Under the pieces are notes generated by a model. The model saw only the letters and a program-made list of their open reading frames with translations. It had not been told where the DNA came from and made no database searches. A program made the translations under genes and the position numbers. A stretch of 64,000 bases of DNA from the NCBI GenBank assembly GCA_964649985.1, contig CAZYQX010000003.1, positions 29,704 to 93,703 on the forward strand, in the 5' to 3' direction. Source of the stretch: an uncultured Pseudomonadales bacterium (GTDB taxonomy: Bacteria > Pseudomonadota > Gammaproteobacteria > Pseudomonadales > CAZYQX01). Shown one piece after another: positions 1,306 to 41,453 of this stretch (the stretch's first letter is position 1; each line of letters opens with the position of its first letter).

Positions 1306-4370
<3,065 letters not shown>

Positions 4371-4385
4371 GGATCAGAGAACCAG

Positions 4386-4415
4386 ACAACGGGGCCGCGC
4401 GCCCCGTTGTTGCTT
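4386..4415 (+). terminator. GC-rich hairpin between guaB and guaA (attenuator or partial terminator)
   Basis: ACAACGGGG (4386-4394) / loop CCGCGCG / CCCCGTTGT (4402-4410), followed by TGCTT. The U-tract is weak. Confidence 0.4.
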
Positions 4416-4457
4416 ACAGGGCGCCGCACGCGCCGCAGCCATTTTTGAGCAGCCACC

Positions 4458-6032
4458 ATGACCCAGAACATCCACGCCCAGAAAATCCTGATCCTGGACT
4501 TCGGCTCCCAGTACACCCAGCTGATCGCCCGCCGGGTGCGCGAGATCGGCGCCTACTGCGAGATCTACGCCTGGGATGCCGGTGACGAGGCCATCCGCGC
4601 TTACGCGCCCCAGGGCATCATCCTCTCCGGTGGCCCCGAGACCACCACCCTGGAAGGCACCCCCCGCGCCAGCCAGGCAGTGTTCGAGCTGGGCGTGCCG
4701 GTGCTGGGCATCTGCTACGGCATGCAGACCATGGCGGTGCAGCTGGGGGGCAAGGTGGAGTCCTCCGAGCTGCGGGAATTCGGCTATGCCCGCGTCACCG
4801 TGAACGGCGCCAACCCGCTGCTGGATGGCATCAGCGATCACGACGATGCCGCCGGCCACCAGCTCGACGTGTGGATGAGCCACGGCGACAAGGTCACCGT
4901 GCTGCCGCCCGGTTTCAGCCTGATGTGCGGCACCGACAGCGCCCCCATCGCCGGCATGTGCGATGTGAGCCGCCAGCTCTACGCGGTGCAGTTCCACCCG
5001 GAAGTGACCCACACCCACCAGGGCGGCCGCATGCTGGAGCGCTTCGTGCGCGGCATCTGTGGCTGTGAAGGGCTGTGGACCACCGCCAACATTATCGAAG
5101 ATGCCATCGCCACCGTGCGCGCCAAGGTGGGCGGTGACAAGGTGCTGCTGGGCCTGTCCGGCGGGGTGGATTCCTCGGTGGTGGCCGCCCTGTTGCACCG
5201 GGCCATCGGCGAGCAGCTGACCTGCGTGTTCGTCGACACCGGCCTGTTGCGCCTGCACGAGGGTGATCAGGTGATGGCCATGTTCGCCCAGAACATGGGC
5301 GTGAAGGTGATCCGCGTCGACGCCGAAGCCCTGTTCATGGGCAAGCTGGCCGGCGTGGCCGACCCCGAAGAGAAGCGCAAGATCATCGGCCGCACCTTCA
5401 TCGAGGTGTTCGATGCCGAGGCCGCCAAACTCACCGACGTGAAGTGGCTGGCCCAGGGCACCATCTACCCGGACGTGATCGAGTCCGCCGCCAGCAAGCA
5501 CGGCAAGGCGCACGTGATCAAGTCCCACCACAACGTGGGCGGCCTGCCGGAAGACATGGCGTTTGAGCTGGTCGAGCCACTGCGCGAGCTGTTCAAGGAC
5601 GAAGTGCGCAAGCTGGGCCTGGAACTGGGCCTGCCCTACGACATGGTCTACCGCCACCCCTTCCCCGGCCCCGGCCTGGGCGTGCGCATTCTGGGCGAGG
5701 TGAAGAAAGAGTACGCCGACATCCTGCGCCAGGCGGACTACATCTTCATGGAAGAGCTGCACAAGGCGGGCTGGTATCACCAGGTGTCCCAAGCCTTCGC
5801 GGTGTTCCTGCCGGTGAAATCGGTCGGCGTGGTGGGCGACGGCCGCCGCTACGAGTGGGTGATCTCCCTGCGCGCGGTGCAGACCATCGACTTCATGACC
5901 GCCCACTGGGCGCACCTGCCCTACGAACTGCTGGGGGAAGTCTCCCGCCGCATCATCAACGAGATCAGCGGCGTGTCGCGTGTGGTGTACGACATTTCCG
6001 GTAAGCCGCCGGCCACCATCGAGTGGGAGTGA
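4458..6032 (+). CDS. guaA: GMP synthase (glutamine-hydrolysing)
   Basis: 524 aa. GATase domain ([27 protein letters not shown]), ATP-PPase P-loop SGGVDSSV and the invariant C-terminus [10 protein letters not shown]. Confidence 0.97.
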
Positions 6033-6076
6033 TTTGGCGGTTGGCACTTTCCCGTACGTACTAGTAAAGGCAAGCC

Positions 6077-6103
6077 AAAAGCCCGCGTAATCGCGGGCTT
6101 TTG
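6077..6103 (+). terminator. Rho-independent terminator of guaBA
   Basis: AAAAGCCCGCG (6077-6087) / TAAT / CGCGGGCTTTT (6092-6102). Perfect 7-bp GC stem plus a T-run. Confidence 0.7.
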
Positions 6104-6192
6104 GCATTTACACTTCTGTAAATTGAGGCTTCTCGTTCTGCCAGCGAGCCGTTGAGCTAACGTCGAAGTAGGCGTACTGGCCAATCCAACAG

Positions 6193-6198
6193 TAGAAT
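6193..6198 (+). promoter_or_regulatory. Candidate -10 box (TAGAAT) for the SIR2-domain gene
   Basis: TAGAAT lies 29 nt upstream of ATG 6227. No convincing -35 hexamer at 16-18 nt spacing. Confidence 0.25.
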
Positions 6199-6226
6199 CG
6201 ACGCACAGTATTGATTAATTGAGCTT

Positions 6227-9200
6227 ATGAGATTCTATCCCGATGGTCCCGCGATACCGGATATCCTTCTGGAGCGCTGTGATGCTGGTCGCGTCGTGTT
6301 TCTGTGCGGTGCAGGAGTTTCGAAACCATCTATGCCGGATTTTGTCGGCCTCACTCGCTACGTCATAGACTGTTTTGCCCCGCCAGCTGATTCAGAAATC
6401 ATGGTCGCGTTTTGGCCATGGCACCCTGATAATCCGCATCGGAACGATCAGTCTGCGGCAAAAGTCCCGCTCGACCAAATCTTCAATCTCCTGCACCTTG
6501 AATACGGCAAGGACGAAGTGAACGCTCTGGTTACAGAGAAGCTTAGTACTCCTCTCGAAACCCAAGATGTTGGACGTGAACACGGCCTGATCAAGCGGAT
6601 TTCTAAGAGTACGAGCGGTGTGCCGCAGATCGTCACGACGAATTTCGACCGCTTGTTCGAGATAGGGCCCGAGGGGGAGCATCTGCGCCCGCATGAGCCG
6701 CCTGCTTTTCCCGACCTGAACTTCGGATCGAAGATAGAGGGGATCACGTATCTACATGGGCGGCTGGTGGAGGTGACCTCAGAAAGCCATCCCTACGTTC
6801 TGAGTAGCGCGGACTTCGGGCGTGCATATCTCTCAGAGGGATGGGCAACTAACTTCATCCGGCACCTCCTCGAACGATATACCGTCGTTTTGGTCGGCTA
6901 TCAGGCCGAAGACCCGCCAATCAAATATCTTCTTCAGGGTCTCAACCATGACGGTCAGTATGACCGGTCCAGACTCTACGCCTTTGATCGTGGGCTTCCG
7001 GAAGAGATCGAAGCTCGGTGGCGTGACCGAGGTGTCACAGCTATAGCCTATTCCGATCATCCGGACTTGTGGAAGAGCATGGAAGCTTGGGCAGACCGGG
7101 CCGACGACCTGCGCAAGTGGCGTGCATCCATCATCAATAAAGCCCAGCATGATCCGAAAAATCTTGCCCCTCATGAGCGTGGTCAAGTGGCGCATGTACT
7201 TCGCACAGTACAGGGGGCGAGATTGTTCTCTGAGGCGGACCCTTTACCTCATCCGGAATGGGTGTGTGTGATGGATGCGAATGTTCGTTTGGCGGCACCG
7301 GGCCCAGGCGATAGCGCCGTTGCAGAAGTTTTCGATGCCAGGGTTGCTTATGGGCTCGATGATGATCTGACGGATAACTCTGATGATGAGAGTCGTCAGG
7401 GTGCCAGCAACGACAATCTCCTAGTTTGGCGCCATGGCGATGACAGCCCACATGAGTTTCATCGATTGGCTGGGCGACAGGTCGAAGGCTATGAGGCCAT
7501 TCCTAGAAGGCTCGGCTATCTCATCAAATGGATTAGTAAGTCGATCGATAGTCCGGTGTTGGCGTGGTGGGCCATTCGAAAGAACGGACTGCATCCACGA
7601 TTGCTGCATGAGATTGAATTGCAGTTAGCGCGTGAGGGTGGTCTGCACGAGCGTGCACGCCATATCTGGAACCTTATACTCGAATACTTTCGGGATCCAC
7701 GTAATCGTCAGAGGTGTGACGGCTGGTTCGATTTGAAAACGCGGATCAATTTGGAGGGGTGGACGGCCAGTGTTTTACGAGAATTCCAGAGGGTTGCGAT
7801 GCCTAGATTGGATATCACACCGCCTCATGGACTGAGCCAGTCCAGGCCACCTTGTGTGCCTTGGGAGCAAATTTGCCTAGAACACCTCGGCCATTTTGAG
7901 GTGAAATTCCTTTATCAGTGTAAAGAAGATGTAGACGTTCCCGACGATTTTTTGCCGCAGGTATTTGGCATCCTGGAAGATCAGCTGATTGTAGCGTCAG
8001 GTTTGCTGGGGGATATTGATAGCACAAACGTTGAGGCTCCGACCTGCTATGCCGACCGTGAGATCGACGGGGATGACTACGTTACTCCAGCTGGGGAAGT
8101 TTTTGCTCGGTTTGTACATCTTTTTGACCGAATGGCTGACAGGTGGCCTGCACTCGCGAATGCGCACGCAACAACTTGGCCTGTGACGGACCGGCTCTTC
8201 TTCCGGAAGCTAAAGCTGTATGCGTTCAACAAAGTAGGTGTGTTCGAAGCCGATTATGTTGCCGAAGAAGTTTTGTCTTTAGATCAGGAAACATTCTGGG
8301 ACATTGATGTTGCCCGAGAGCTTCTTTTTCTTTTTGTGGACCGATGGGGAGAGTTTTCTCTGGAGTGCCGGAATCGACTGATCGACCGTATTTTGACTGG
8401 CCCCAATAAGGGTTCGGATGGGCTTGGGGAGGAGTGCGCTGTATCGTGGGATGAGTTTGATGCCGCCAGATACGCTCGGTATATCGAACTACAAGGGTGC
8501 GAGCTGGCGGCTGATCACAGTGAACGACTTGCCGAGATGATCCAGCGTATTCCTAGATGGAGTGACCGTTGTGCGACCTCACTGGTGGACGAACGGGGCC
8601 ATTGTGTGGTTGGGATTGTTAAGGATGAAAAACCAGATGTCCTTGTGGGCATTCCTGTAAACGAGGTGGTCTCCAGGGCCAAGGAAGACTTGAATCGGGA
8701 CGTTGGCAGCTTCATTGAAAAGAGACCCTTTACGGGTATGGTGAGAGAAAATCCGCGAAAAGCGTTGTCTGCATTGACTATTGCGGGAAAGGCTGGCGAC
8801 TACCCAGAGGTGCTCTGGTTGGCGATGATCAATGAAATTCCCGCAAACATCACGTCTAGGCTGAGAAGGGTATTCCTTAACCGACTCGCACGGCTTCCAA
8901 ATAATGTGATCGTCGAACTGCGCCATAACTTAGCTCGATGGCTCAGGCAAAATTTGGGTTCTATTCTTGAGTTCGACGTTGATCTTGGTTGGGCAGTTTA
9001 TGATCACGTCGTCGAAGGTATCCTAGGGGGTGGTGCAGACGCTACAAAGAGTGACCTTGTTGAAATTTACCATGCTGGAGGCGTCGCCCAACGGTCTCGG
9101 CGCACTTTAAAGCAGGCGTTCCACGGCCCAATTGGTCTGTGTGCTGAGGCTCTTTTTTCCGCAGTGCCTGGCGAAATACAGGCTGCCGGGTCACTAATCC

Positions 9201-10054
9201 CATATGACATCAAGTCTCGTGTCGAGCGACTCTTTACCGCGCCGGGAGAGGGGGCAGACCACGCAGTATCGGTAACGACTAGCAAGCTGGTCTGGCTTAT
9301 GTCTGTCGACCCTGCCTGGACAAAGGTTCGCATTATTCCAATGTTGGCGTTTGAGCACTCCGCTTCGGAACCAGCTTGGAATGGTTTTCTTCATGGCGGG
9401 CGAGTGCCGTCACCCCCATTGGCCGAGATCATCAAGCCGCTCTTGCTTGATATCCTCCCGTGGATCGAAGAATTTTCCTGGGATCGCAACCTCTCAAATG
9501 TAGCGGTCCAATGGCTAGGCATCATGCGGGTGCGTCGCCTGGATGAACTGGGTGGCCTCTCAGAAGGCCAAATGCGCGCGGTTATTCGAACGATGACAGA
9601 CGCTACTCGGAAGCAGTTCATTTTCTGGTTGGGTCTAGTCGGTCAGCAAAACGATAACGGCTGGGTTAAATATGTCATCCCCTTAATCAATGAGAGCTGG
9701 CCGAGAGAGCGCCGATACAGGACCAGTGCATCGATGACGGCATGGATGCAGCTGCTTGTTAAAACCCAGGATAGTTTCCCGGTTGTATATAACGCGGTGA
9801 AGCAGTTTTTGGTGCCGACTAAGACCGCAGACCATTCGTTTTACTTGTTTACTCGTGTGAACCAGGAGGAAAAATCGATTGCGGCCTTATATCCAGAAGA
9901 AACACTGGATTTGGTGAGCAGGACTATACCTCAAGCCTTCGATTACCCGCTTTTCGGGTTAAAGGAATTACTTGAGCTGATTGGGGATGCCTCCCCCATA
10001 TTGAAAGCAGACCCGCGCTATGTGCGCTTAATCGACCTTATCGAGTGCAGCTAG
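6227..10054 (+). CDS. SIR2-domain protein, 1275 aa: N-terminal SIR2_2/DSR-type NADase-like domain plus ~900-aa C-terminal region of unknown function. Candidate stand-alone anti-phage effector.
   Basis: Ordered SIR2_2 motifs: VVFLCGAGVS (aa 23-32), IVTTNFDRLFE (N139 = nt 6641-6643, D141), YLHGRL (H177 = nt 6755-6757), VVLVGYQAEDPPI (aa 220-232). An acidic linker DDDLTDNSDDESRQGASNDN follows at about aa 378-397. No GxxxxGK[ST] motif occurs anywhere in the protein. Low GC; the only gene in the islet. Confidence 0.8.
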   Translation: MRFYPDGPAIPDILLERCDAGRVVFLCGAGVSKPSMPDFVGLTRYVIDCFAPPADSEIMVAFWPWHPDNPHRNDQSAAKVPLDQIFNLLHLEYGKDEVNALVTEKLSTPLETQDVGREHGLIKRISKSTSGVPQIVTTNFDRLFEIGPEGEHLRPHEPPAFPDLNFGSKIEGITYLHGRLVEVTSESHPYVLSSADFGRAYLSEGWATNFIRHLLERYTVVLVGYQAEDPPIKYLLQGLNHDGQYDRSRLYAFDRGLPEEIEARWRDRGVTAIAYSDHPDLWKSMEAWADRADDLRKWRASIINKAQHDPKNLAPHERGQVAHVLRTVQGARLFSEADPLPHPEWVCVMDANVRLAAPGPGDSAVAEVFDARVAYGLDDDLTDNSDDESRQGASNDNLLVWRHGDDSPHEFHRLAGRQVEGYEAIPRRLGYLIKWISKSIDSPVLAWWAIRKNGLHPRLLHEIELQLAREGGLHERARHIWNLILEYFRDPRNRQRCDGWFDLKTRINLEGWTASVLREFQRVAMPRLDITPPHGLSQSRPPCVPWEQICLEHLGHFEVKFLYQCKEDVDVPDDFLPQVFGILEDQLIVASGLLGDIDSTNVEAPTCYADREIDGDDYVTPAGEVFARFVHLFDRMADRWPALANAHATTWPVTDRLFFRKLKLYAFNKVGVFEADYVAEEVLSLDQETFWDIDVARELLFLFVDRWGEFSLECRNRLIDRILTGPNKGSDGLGEECAVSWDEFDAARYARYIELQGCELAADHSERLAEMIQRIPRWSDRCATSLVDERGHCVVGIVKDEKPDVLVGIPVNEVVSRAKEDLNRDVGSFIEKRPFTGMVRENPRKALSALTIAGKAGDYPEVLWLAMINEIPANITSRLRRVFLNRLARLPNNVIVELRHNLARWLRQNLGSILEFDVDLGWAVYDHVVEGILGGGADATKSDLVEIYHAGGVAQRSRRTLKQAFHGPIGLCAEALFSAVPGEIQAAGSLIPYDIKSRVERLFTAPGEGADHAVSVTTSKLVWLMSVDPAWTKVRIIPMLAFEHSASEPAWNGFLHGGRVPSPPLAEIIKPLLLDILPWIEEFSWDRNLSNVAVQWLGIMRVRRLDELGGLSEGQMRAVIRTMTDATRKQFIFWLGLVGQQNDNGWVKYVIPLINESWPRERRYRTSASMTAWMQLLVKTQDSFPVVYNAVKQFLVPTKTADHSFYLFTRVNQEEKSIAALYPEETLDLVSRTIPQAFDYPLFGLKELLELIGDASPILKADPRYVRLIDLIECS

Positions 10055-10307
10055 AGTAGGGGGGGCGACAAGAGAAATGCTTGGTGCCGTTGTTAGTTTC
10101 GCGCTCTAGATTTTAGTGCAACGAGTGCAGATGCTCGTGAATGGATGTCGCATTACCTTGAATCATCATTGAGATCGGCGGTGACGCGCGGGTGCTGTAG
10201 GACATCTTCGGTCAGCCGTCTGTTACCAAATAGTGGGAGTAAGTCGCCAGATTGAGGCCTGCCACCGAGGTGGTTTGGCCCCTGGCCGGGTGTAATGCCA
10301 CGGCCAT

Positions 10308-10333
10308 GCGGCGTTGCCTTCTGGCAACACCGC
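10308..10333 (-). terminator. Strong hairpin 14 nt downstream of the epimerase-family gene stop (terminator-like, no U-tract)
   Basis: GCGGCGTTGCC (10308-10318) / TTCT / GGCAACACCGC (10323-10333). 11-bp stem with one C/T position. Confidence 0.4.
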
Positions 10334-10346
10334 TTGGCCAATGCCC

Positions 10347-11378
10347 TCAGGCGGGCAGTAGTGGGTGTTTGGATGCCCGCAGGTGCTGCACCGTCAGTTT
10401 GATGCCCTCAGCAAGATTCACCTTCGGTTTCCAGCCAAAATCGCGATAGGCCTTGCCGATCTGGTAGTAGTGATCGGTGATCATGTATTTCACCGCGAAG
10501 CGCGACATGCCGTTTTCCGCGCTGATGCCGCCGCCTTTGAGGGTGTCGATGCCCTCGATGATCGCGGCCACCGCATAGGCCAGCCAGTAGGGCACCCGGT
10601 ATTGGATGGCGGGGAAGCCTGCGGTGAGCATGAAGCGCTCCACAAACTCGAAGAAGGCCATGGGTTCGCCGTTGGTGATGAAGTAGGCTTGCCCACACAG
10701 CGGCGAATCCGGCACCAGCGCGGCCTCGGCGGCGATCACGGCATCCACCAGGTTGGCAATGTAGGTGAAGTCCGACAGCTTGTTGCGCGCACCGATCTCG
10801 AATTTCAGCTTGCCGGCCGCGGCCTTTTCCAGAATGTTGGGGATGAAGCGGTTGTCCCCCGGGCCGAACACTACATGGGGGCGGATGGCGCAGGCCTGGG
10901 TGATGCCGGTGCCACTGAAGGCCAGCACATCCTTCTCCGCCTGGATCTTGCTGTCGGCATAGGGGGCCTGCGAGATGGAGGAGTAGGGCAGGCTCTCATC
11001 GCCGTTGCGGATATCGTGACCTTCATAAACTGCACTGGCGGAGCTGATATACACCAGGCGGGGGATCGTGTGCTGCTTACAGGCCTCCATCACGTTCAGC
11101 GTGCCCTGGTGGTTCACGGCCCAGACCAGGTCTTCGCGGTTGTTTTTGGTGTGCACGATGGAGGCATTGTGCACCACCGAGTCCATGCCCTGGCAGGCGT
11201 CGATCACCGCCTGCCGGTCGGTGAGGTCCACCTTGAGGAAGCGCACATCCGGCCTGAAGGGGGTGCCGCCCAGGTCGATCACGGTGACCTCGAAGCCCTG
11301 GTCGGCGAAGCCATCCACCAGGCTTTTGCCGATGAAGCCAAAACCGCCGGTGATGAGAATTTTCCGCGCCTTAGCCAT
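10347..11378 (-). CDS. NAD(P)-dependent 3beta-hydroxysteroid dehydrogenase/isomerase-family (extended SDR/epimerase) protein
   Basis: 343 aa. Rossmann motif ILITGGFGFIGKSL, catalytic YADSK (YxxxK), overall 3beta-HSD/NAD-epimerase layout. Confidence 0.8.
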   Translation of the reverse strand: MAKARKILITGGFGFIGKSLVDGFADQGFEVTVIDLGGTPFRPDVRFLKVDLTDRQAVIDACQGMDSVVHNASIVHTKNNREDLVWAVNHQGTLNVMEACKQHTIPRLVYISSASAVYEGHDIRNGDESLPYSSISQAPYADSKIQAEKDVLAFSGTGITQACAIRPHVVFGPGDNRFIPNILEKAAAGKLKFEIGARNKLSDFTYIANLVDAVIAAEAALVPDSPLCGQAYFITNGEPMAFFEFVERFMLTAGFPAIQYRVPYWLAYAVAAIIEGIDTLKGGGISAENGMSRFAVKYMITDHYYQIGKAYRDFGWKPKVNLAEGIKLTVQHLRASKHPLLPA

Positions 11379-40475: not shown

Positions 40476-41201
40476 TTAGAGCGGAATCCGCTGGCCGGGC
40501 TGCAATACGCGCAAGCCATGCTGTTCAATGCTGGCGCCCTGCTCTGCATTGGCGTAGTGGTAGCACCACATGCGAGCACGTTGCTCCGGGCTGTACTCGC
40601 GCAGCAGGTCATCCACGCCGCTATGGGAGGGATTGCCCTCCAGTCCACAATCATGGAACAAGGTCTCACCGCGATTGGCGCAGTGAGAGATCAGCTCCGG
40701 CACTGGCCGTGTATCACCGCTATAAAAAAACACCCCATCCACGCCGATGGAAAAGGCCGACAAGGGGGCGTGGTGGCGCGCGGGTCGCACACTCCAGAAA
40801 TACTGCTCATGCCAGAAGCCGTCGCTGACGGGGATCAGGTGAAACACCTCCCAGAAGTTCACGCCGCCCTCGGCCAGTGCTCCAGGATAGGTGCCCAGGC
40901 GTTGATGCAGTAGCGGAATGATCCAGACAGGCACATACACCTTGACCTGGCCGCGCCGGGCAGGGTCGAAGCATATGGTGTGGAACAGCCCTTCCAGGCC
41001 ACCTATATGATCGAGGTGGCAGTGGGTGATAAACACGGCGGAGGGCGGTTCTCCATAACTGGCAAGATAACGACTGAGCGTGTCGAGTCCACAATCGATC
41101 AGGAGTAGGGGAGTACCGCCTCGCTCAATAACGCAGGCAGAACAGCCCAGCCCTTTGTTACTGGCAGAACCTACCCCTAAAAAATGCGCACTGAGTGTCA
41201 T
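40476..41201 (-). CDS. MBL-fold metallo-hydrolase
   Basis: ATG 41201 after GGAGGGGAG. THCHLDHIGG (HxHxDH) motif. The stop abuts the tamA start codon. Confidence 0.8.
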   Translation of the reverse strand: MTLSAHFLGVGSASNKGLGCSACVIERGGTPLLLIDCGLDTLSRYLASYGEPPSAVFITHCHLDHIGGLEGLFHTICFDPARRGQVKVYVPVWIIPLLHQRLGTYPGALAEGGVNFWEVFHLIPVSDGFWHEQYFWSVRPARHHAPLSAFSIGVDGVFFYSGDTRPVPELISHCANRGETLFHDCGLEGNPSHSGVDDLLREYSPEQRARMWCYHYANAEQGASIEQHGLRVLQPGQRIPL

Positions 41202-41453
41202 GCTCCCCTCCTGAAGCGGGCAGTTCATGTGCTGCCCCATGGGAAGTCATTCTAACAGGCCGTTGTAATCTGCGATCACGGGGGGCGGTATATGGGCATC
41301 AGCTTGCGTGGTCAAAACAAGCATAGGCGAGGAGAATAACGCTTGTGTCTGCCGGCAGATTAACATGCGTCTGCGCACGAAGAGCACTGCTGCCTGCGTG
41401 ATTCAGCCACTGGCAAGTGCTACATGGTGATCATGGTTGAATGAGACTGATGT

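Follow-up and report, generated by a model that had tools for sequence, protein, structure and literature searches.

Within a 64,000-nucleotide (nt) stretch of a contig from an uncultured Pseudomonadales bacterium (hereafter the window), a single long open reading frame (ORF) at 6227..10054 on the forward strand is translated in the ORF list into a protein of 1275 amino acids (aa), in which an N-terminal SIR2 domain precedes a long C-terminal body that an earlier note on this DNA had described as a putative novel sensor. Judged by profile and pairwise comparison, we consider with high confidence that the protein is a diverged, full-length member of the DSR1 family, in the broad sense in which PADLOC uses the name, and that it very likely acts as an anti-phage system on its own, with the sensor half encoded at window 7349-10054. 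DSR1, or Dsr1 (defense-associated sirtuin 1), was reportedly described by Gao et al. in 2020 and Garb et al. in 2022.

Assignment of the C-terminal body to the DSR1 family

The PADLOC Dsr1 profile PDLC04167 was matched at 1e-76, most strongly by aa 658-1272, which fall on positions 640-1239 of its 1248, and the PADLOC Dsr1 profile PDLC02183 at 6e-70, covering aa 1-346, while the NCBIfam model NF041818, named "anti-phage defense-associated sirtuin Dsr1", was matched at 7.7e-100 (aa 474-1271 against positions 479-1261 of 1263). As a reference, the gene of Escherichia coli Dsr1 was recovered by tblastn from a Stx2c prophage record; its product scores 2059 bits against NF041818 and is exactly 1275 aa long, equal to the window protein. 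BLASTP between the two proteins was co-linear, with 28% identity over aa 1-346 (E 3e-36) and 22% identity between aa 626-1268 and residues 634-1266 of E. coli Dsr1 (E 4e-21). An hhalign comparison of a 95-sequence family profile with E. coli Dsr1 returned a probability of 100% (E 2e-100, 1194 columns, residues 1-1273) and also spanned aa 398-625, a stretch without a BLASTP match. Given this end-to-end co-linearity, the entire motif-free body corresponds to the C-terminal domain of DSR1, in a diverged subfamily. The two proteins share an N-terminal SIR2 domain and a C-terminal helical domain of ~880 aa; unlike E. coli Dsr1, the window protein has an EWxCVxD...YGLDDDP junction and an acidic linker between them.

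In composition, the body is much as the earlier note had it. The acidic string DDDLTDNSDDESRQGASNDN is exactly aa 378-397 (position 7349 being codon 375), and after it follow 878 residues, close to the ~880 that were claimed to be rich in W, L and R; these make up 3.1%, 11.4%, and 8.2%, respectively, and W, at 3.1%, is clearly enriched. The same note had found no catalytic or NTPase motif in this part, and neither did we: regular-expression scans of aa 398-1275 for Walker A (strict or loose), Walker B, DEAD, HxH and HD gave no match, those for PD-(D/E)xK and HNH gave trivial matches only, to very loose patterns, and Pfam at E<=1 recognized SIR2_2 only in the whole 1275-aa protein, with no TPR, HEAT or NTPase model. 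The idea of a sensor rather than an enzyme stands as well, since the region is a predicted all-alpha solenoid that evolves faster than the SIR2 domain and has its homologue in the C-terminal domain of E. coli Dsr1. The word "novel", though, has to be given up, as the PADLOC and NCBIfam Dsr1 profiles already cover the region and the family is very large.

That family size is apparent from a word-seeded search with aa 398-1275, which retrieved 448 proteins (the 118 closest relatives among the matches listed being 61-68% identical), and from an exhaustive phmmer search, in which the C-terminal query was run against 1.84 billion representatives and matches were counted as clusters at 50% identity: 1568 passed E<=1e-3, and 424 passed E<=1e-30. 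With such numbers of homologues, the ORF is real. Nearly all of the best 150 phmmer clusters have the same architecture, being 1220-1310 aa long and matched at ~395-1270. Close relatives are hosted by Pseudomonas, Metapseudomonas, Alcanivorax, Microbulbifer, Gallionella, Paraburkholderia, Halomonas and others, and those that carry a name are called solely "SIR2 family protein", "SIR2-like protein" or "hypothetical protein". More broadly, relatives were found in Beta-, Gamma- and Alphaproteobacteria and in one Chitinophagaceae metagenome-assembled genome (MAG), and homologues occur in 63 plasmid records; this cross-phylum spread, together with the plasmid records, points to horizontal transfer. 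A search for other effectors on the same sensor returned eight shorter matches (887-1040 aa) without a Pfam domain, which are probably truncated gene calls, and the one longer match scanned (1314 aa) carries SIR2.

Conservation and predicted structure

Conservation was measured across 35 diverse homologues. Mean identity is 49% in the SIR2 part and 30% in the C-terminal part, where gaps amount to ~1%; the C-terminal part is a faster-evolving domain of constant length. Within the SIR2 NADase effector domain (6227..7264, aa 1-346; this and all features below lie on the forward strand unless stated otherwise), Pfam SIR2_2 was matched at aa 134-273 (1.5e-15), and family profiles matched the SIR2 NADases KomC, DSR2 and ThsA. 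G28, A29, G30 and S32 of the GAGxS loop (aa 28-32) are at least 90% conserved, and T137, T138, N139, D141, H177 and G178 are invariant, the TTNFD motif supplying N139 and D141. With the catalytic set N139/D141/H177 and the GAGxS loop conserved, the effector looks functional. A database copy of the identical protein is 1240 aa long and begins at Met36. Among homologues, conservation extends over M1-R2-F3...GP-IPD-LL and over the NAD-binding loop CGAGVS (aa 27-32); since these features of aa 1-35 are conserved, translation truly starts at the ATG at 6227, and the deposited gene call lacks the first 35 codons (window 6227-6331).

Between the two halves lies a conserved junction (7247..7366, aa 341-380), in which the subfamily-specific motif PxPxxEW(L/V)CV(F/M)D is followed by a second one, FDPxxxYGLDDD. 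W345, V348, D350 and D378 are invariant there, R354 and D380 are at least 90% conserved, and in the alignment E. coli Dsr1 has no YGLDDD. Sensor and effector may be coupled through this junction. The motif (F)DPxxxYGLDDD(P) takes in the first residues of the supposed linker, so that the acidic linker proposed at aa 378-397 is rightly placed, but its first three residues belong to the conserved YGLDDD(P) motif and only aa ~381-397 are variable (7367..7417, low in identity and in model confidence). Homologues average 24% identity across aa 378-397, and no other segment measured has a higher entropy (2.78 bits).

Structurally, we compared two AlphaFold2 models, of which model 1 was built from a shallow multiple sequence alignment of 26 close homologues (pLDDT, the predicted local distance difference test, 72.8) and model 2, covering aa 335-1275, from 95 diverse sequences (pLDDT 89.6; pTM, the predicted template modelling score, 0.76). 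Model 2, which unlike the mediocre model 1 is confident, is an all-alpha solenoid with about 42 helices, which agrees with the helix-like spacing seen earlier in the letters, and comprises the junction and linker (aa 335-426), a bridge and ~35 further helices. The junction is modelled at pLDDT 73-93, and disorder is limited to aa 384-393 (model 2 residues 50-59), the sole segment with pLDDT<50. The helical bridge sub-domain (7505..7906, aa ~427-560) consists of six helices followed by two short paired beta strands (helices H93-190, strands E193-197/E222-226 in model 2), carries a conserved L-x2-WI...P-x2-AWWA motif and aligns in hhalign to aa ~405-560 of E. coli Dsr1. Beyond it, the bulk of the C-terminal body is predicted to be a HEAT/TPR-like alpha-solenoid of ~700 residues. 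Its first part (7943..9028, aa ~573-934; helices H239-600, pLDDT mostly >90), the boundary of which is approximate, as set from secondary structure and a low-confidence loop, is separated by a Gly-rich loop with a beta-hairpin (9029..9106, aa ~935-960; pLDDT down to 57; strands E614-615/E618-619) from a second part (9107..10054, including the stop codon, aa ~961-1275; helices H627-940), which is co-linear with E. coli Dsr1 up to residue 1266/1273. The invariant residues of the C-terminal part (W435, W448, W512, F835, W864, W1031, W1158 and P1159) are for the most part Trp, Pro and Phe and have a structural, not a catalytic, character. By inference, the least conserved windows (aa 726-800, 901-950 and 1076-1125, at 19-22% identity, with 21% at 926-950) are candidate specificity surfaces.

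Foldseek against PDB matched only protein-binding HEAT/ARM solenoids (CAND1, transportin-3, importins, SF3B1, condensin HEAT subunits, PP2A-A), and among the top 50 there was neither an enzyme fold nor a DSR2 or Avs structure. The best E-value for model 2 was 9e-5 and its best template modelling (TM) score 0.29, model 1 was similar, and TM-scores were <= 0.31 across both models; against BFVD there was no match. Like the window model, these eukaryotic proteins are superhelical arrays of helical hairpins that wrap protein cargo; unlike homologues, they align with TM-scores of 0.13-0.29, 9-13% identity and E 1e-4 or weaker, which is generic similarity of fold class and speaks neither for homology nor for a shared function. 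Neither Foldseek nor profile searches, then, assigned the region to a well-known domain with a non-defence role. A single-sequence search of PDB found no solved-structure homologue, and PDB profile searches (profiles A2 and A3) gave matches in the SIR2 domain only (KomC, DSR2, ThsA, sirtuins). Comparison of the profile with itself in hhalign found no significant internal repeat (best off-diagonal E 0.01, probability 4%); the helical repeats are too degenerate to detect in sequence, hence the absence of a TPR or HEAT match in Pfam.

DSR2 of Bacillus subtilis, with which the earlier note had drawn its analogy, deserves separate mention. Like the window protein, it joins an N-terminal SIR2 NADase domain to a C-terminal alpha-solenoid, and the SIR2 domains are homologous (E 8e-9); that solenoid is reported to bind a phage tail tube protein and an anti-defence protein. 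Unlike the SIR2 domains, the C-terminal regions have no detectable sequence homology, and the lengths differ (1005 aa in DSR2 versus 1275 aa here). DSR2 was rejected as the family of this protein, as profiles A2 and A3 match it at profile positions 16-240 (SIR2) only and it lies outside the Foldseek top 50. The analogy was functionally apt, but the comparator was the wrong one: only the SIR2 domains are related, and DSR1 is the correct relative.

The guaA insertion site and the loci of homologues

The gene lies between guaA (4458-6032, identified by Pfam) and a minus-strand gene for an NAD-dependent epimerase, in a block of low GC content (0.48-0.56 from ~6050 to ~10250, versus 0.62-0.66 outside). 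This ~4.2-kb block (6031-10240) carries the DSR1-like gene only, with no integrase inside it, and is bounded by a 79-nt direct repeat, the two copies of which are 75% identical (blastn E 8e-5): the left copy (5952..6030) is the 3' end of the functional guaA and forms an att-like site, and the right copy (10162..10240), at the far edge of the cassette, is a degenerate, stop-containing guaA 3' remnant. The repeats are the att-like footprint of a site-specific insertion at the guaA stop codon. In an Alcanivorax MAG (CP051239.1), a 71%-identical homologue (6001-9810) likewise directly follows guaA (4098-5669; 75% aa identity to the window guaA), flanked by a direct repeat of ~215 nt and ~90% identity (5655-5880 / 10155-10381) that begins at the last guaA codons. 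The insertions after guaA in both genomes suggest either a cassette that targets guaA or a hotspot that is used recurrently. A 65-nt flanking repeat was also seen in a Thiobacillaceae MAG (1368-1432 / 6719-6783).

Upstream of the gene, ~90 nt before the ATG (6140..6226) are conserved with the Alcanivorax locus and travel with the gene, the remaining intergenic DNA not being conserved between the two; the region is a probable promoter and 5' untranslated region, and no strong sigma-70 consensus was found in it. Just 3' of guaA, inside the left edge of the low-GC block, a perfect hairpin with a 14-bp stem (GCCAAAAGCCCGCG/CGCGGGCTTTTGGC, 6074-6105) is probably the guaA terminator and possibly bidirectional.

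Elsewhere in the window no other defence system was found, the other large ORFs scanned being housekeeping genes (TamA/TamB, response regulators, oxidoreductases). A 254-aa ORF of metallo-beta-lactamase fold on the minus strand (40476-41240) scored 44 bits against the Pfam model Anti-Pycsar Apyc1, below its cutoff of 50; its neighbours, in a stretch of slightly low GC (40-44 kb, 0.57-0.58), include an HD-domain response regulator and an RNase T/GIY-YIG protein, and it is probably a housekeeping metallo-beta-lactamase hydrolase.

Homologues, by comparison, keep more telling company. The Pseudomonas aeruginosa homologue, found at two loci (L004, 14730-18559; L005, 12224-16053), resides in an integrase-bearing island with a Rep-like gene and adjoins a pair formed by an OLD-like TOPRIM/AAA ATPase and a UvrD helicase, the architecture of Gabija (GajA/GajB); at L005, a group II intron reverse transcriptase lies nearby as well. 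In Metapseudomonas resinovorans (AP013068.1), a 1264-aa protein with a YobI-ATPase domain (5717-9511) is encoded directly upstream of the homologue, with insertion sequence elements near, and this pairing of YobI-ATPase and DSR1-like genes is repeated on 10 further contigs, which may be a two-gene defence hotspot. Since no neighbour is common across the loci examined, the gene appears to be a stand-alone single-gene system, and the combination of variable neighbours, mobile DNA and defence-gene company fits a stand-alone defence gene. In this the window gene resembles DSR1, a single-gene system on mobile DNA, of which the E. coli reference lies beside a prophage integrase. In the Stx2c-converting phage record LC727881.1, that reference is a prophage-borne defence gene left unannotated at the left end (2049-5876), directly after the integrase (643-1866).

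Proposed mechanism, trigger and rival explanations

Functionally, the published work on relatives offers a model for this protein. In cells with DSR1, NAD+ falls during infection, in the case of phi29 only transiently and with no collapse of the culture (bioRxiv 10.1101/2021.12.14.472415); an E. coli Dsr1 is overcome by T4 nrdC.5 (PMC9391042). According to a 2026 preprint, a screen of 73 genes yielded only one trigger of EcDsr1 toxicity, the phage major capsid protein, the effector domain was needed for this toxicity, and the C-terminal domain of EcDsr1 shares homology with the sensor of Avs7, a bilobed TPR domain (antiviral STAND family 7; Lee et al. 2026), a relationship that took 9-16 PSI-BLAST iterations to detect (PMC12803255). 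The Avs7 sensor envelops the HK97-fold capsid protein through a shape-complementary interface of 3,700 A^2, and its two lobes clamp together, relieving autoinhibition (PMC12803255). Like Avs7, the window model has a long alpha-solenoid interrupted by a loop; unlike Avs7, it has a SIR2 effector in place of the Cap4 nuclease and lacks the STAND NTPase (no Walker A/B by regular expression and no NTPase in Pfam, NCBIfam or PADLOC), and without an NTPase it is not an Avs. Dependence on EF-Tu and assembly into tetramers are features of Avs7.

By homology, we posit that the solenoid would hold the SIR2 domain inactive in uninfected cells, that upon infection it (aa ~427-1275) would wrap around a structural protein freshly produced by the phage (for E. 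coli Dsr1, the HK97-fold major capsid protein), using a wide surface of complementary shape, and that a conformational change or oligomerization would then switch on NAD+ hydrolysis and starve phage replication. The present analysis supplies the homology to Dsr1 from end to end, the modelled solenoid, the intact catalytic residues of SIR2, the solitary mobile gene and the defence islands around homologues. The NAD+ depletion, the capsid trigger and the effector requirement in this scheme come from the literature on other family members, and we infer that this diverged protein behaves like other DSR1 proteins, in autoinhibition and trigger too. Whether the trigger of this subfamily would be the major capsid protein itself strikes us as evenly balanced.

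Several observations weigh against this reading. The NF041818 score of 335 bits lies far under the equivalog cutoff of 1400, and although 35/35 diverse relatives match the model (best 1e-138), 0/35 reach that cutoff, so that we are dealing with a separate, diverged subfamily and not with an equivalog. At 22% sensor identity to E. coli Dsr1, trigger specificity could differ. The Avs7 entries PDB 9N00/9N01/9YIX were not among the sequence-profile or Foldseek matches, PDB profiles matched nothing in the C-terminal part, and, with no alternative effector on the same sensor, the effector-swap search did not reproduce the Avs7 link. We found no published experiment on any member of the ~1269-aa proteobacterial clade. 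Finally, the window gene stands alone, outside any defence island: the flanking genes examined are all housekeeping (xseA, guaB, guaA, an aldehyde dehydrogenase, a GMC oxidoreductase).

The divergence invites the alternative that the protein is a DSR1 member whose solenoid senses a cue other than the HK97 major capsid protein, such as a host factor that has been perturbed, or a different phage protein with a role in structure or replication. We consider this possible but rather doubtful. Besides the low sensor identity and NF041818 score, it draws on the YGLDDD junction motif, which is specific to the subfamily, on the poorly conserved sensor windows, and on the fact that alternative activators are, by that paper's own account, not excluded (PMC12803255). 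Set against this, the sensors of Avs7 and Dsr1, which are far more distant from each other, both answer to capsid protein, the fold being read rather than the sequence (PMC12803255), and the domain is co-linear and constant in length across the family. A related and equally tentative proposal is that the ~1269-aa clade would be a separate DSR1-like lineage, with its own EWxCVxD...YGLDDDP coupling motif, acidic linker and non-capsid cue, spreading as an integrase-less guaA-stop-codon cassette of ~4.2-4.5 kb.

Improbable, in our view, is that the C-terminal body serves mainly as an oligomerization or scaffold module, with sensing of NAD+/ADP-ribose-derived or nucleic-acid signals located elsewhere, at the SIR2 domain or the bridge. 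The closest structural neighbours do include scaffolds and adaptors such as CAND1 and PP2A-A, the bridge (aa 427-560) is conserved, and DSR2 is reported to tetramerize through its non-SIR2 regions; yet deletion of the Avs7 sensor abolishes capsid-protein binding and capsid protein alone sets off EcDsr1 toxicity (PMC12803255), 880 aa far exceed what oligomerization needs, and scaffold and sensor roles are compatible. A hidden enzymatic or nucleic-acid-binding activity, or a housekeeping deacylase with a substrate-recruiting solenoid, is very unlikely: the housekeeping neighbours in the window would leave room for it, but the modelled all-alpha repeat fold has no enzyme-like core, Trp, Pro and Phe predominate among the invariant residues of the C-terminal part, the gene sits in a low-GC insert, is patchily distributed across phyla and occurs on plasmids, with homologues beside defence genes, and NADase defence effectors use a domain of the SIR2_2 type, as found here.

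A DSR1-family system with a phage-protein-sensing solenoid is therefore the reading we retain, and a specialist in phage defence would find none of these points surprising. The guaA-stop-codon cassette is a small, clean example of how a single defence gene moves. For the family at large, the NCBIfam equivalog cutoff and the current product names fail to capture a DSR1 subfamily that is large and widespread, in Pseudomonas, Alcanivorax, Yersinia and related genera, and that, being so diverged, is a reasonable choice for testing whether capsid sensing extends across DSR1. An 880-residue region annotated only as "SIR2 family protein" thereby becomes a testable prediction, namely that it would be a DSR1 solenoid that senses a phage protein.

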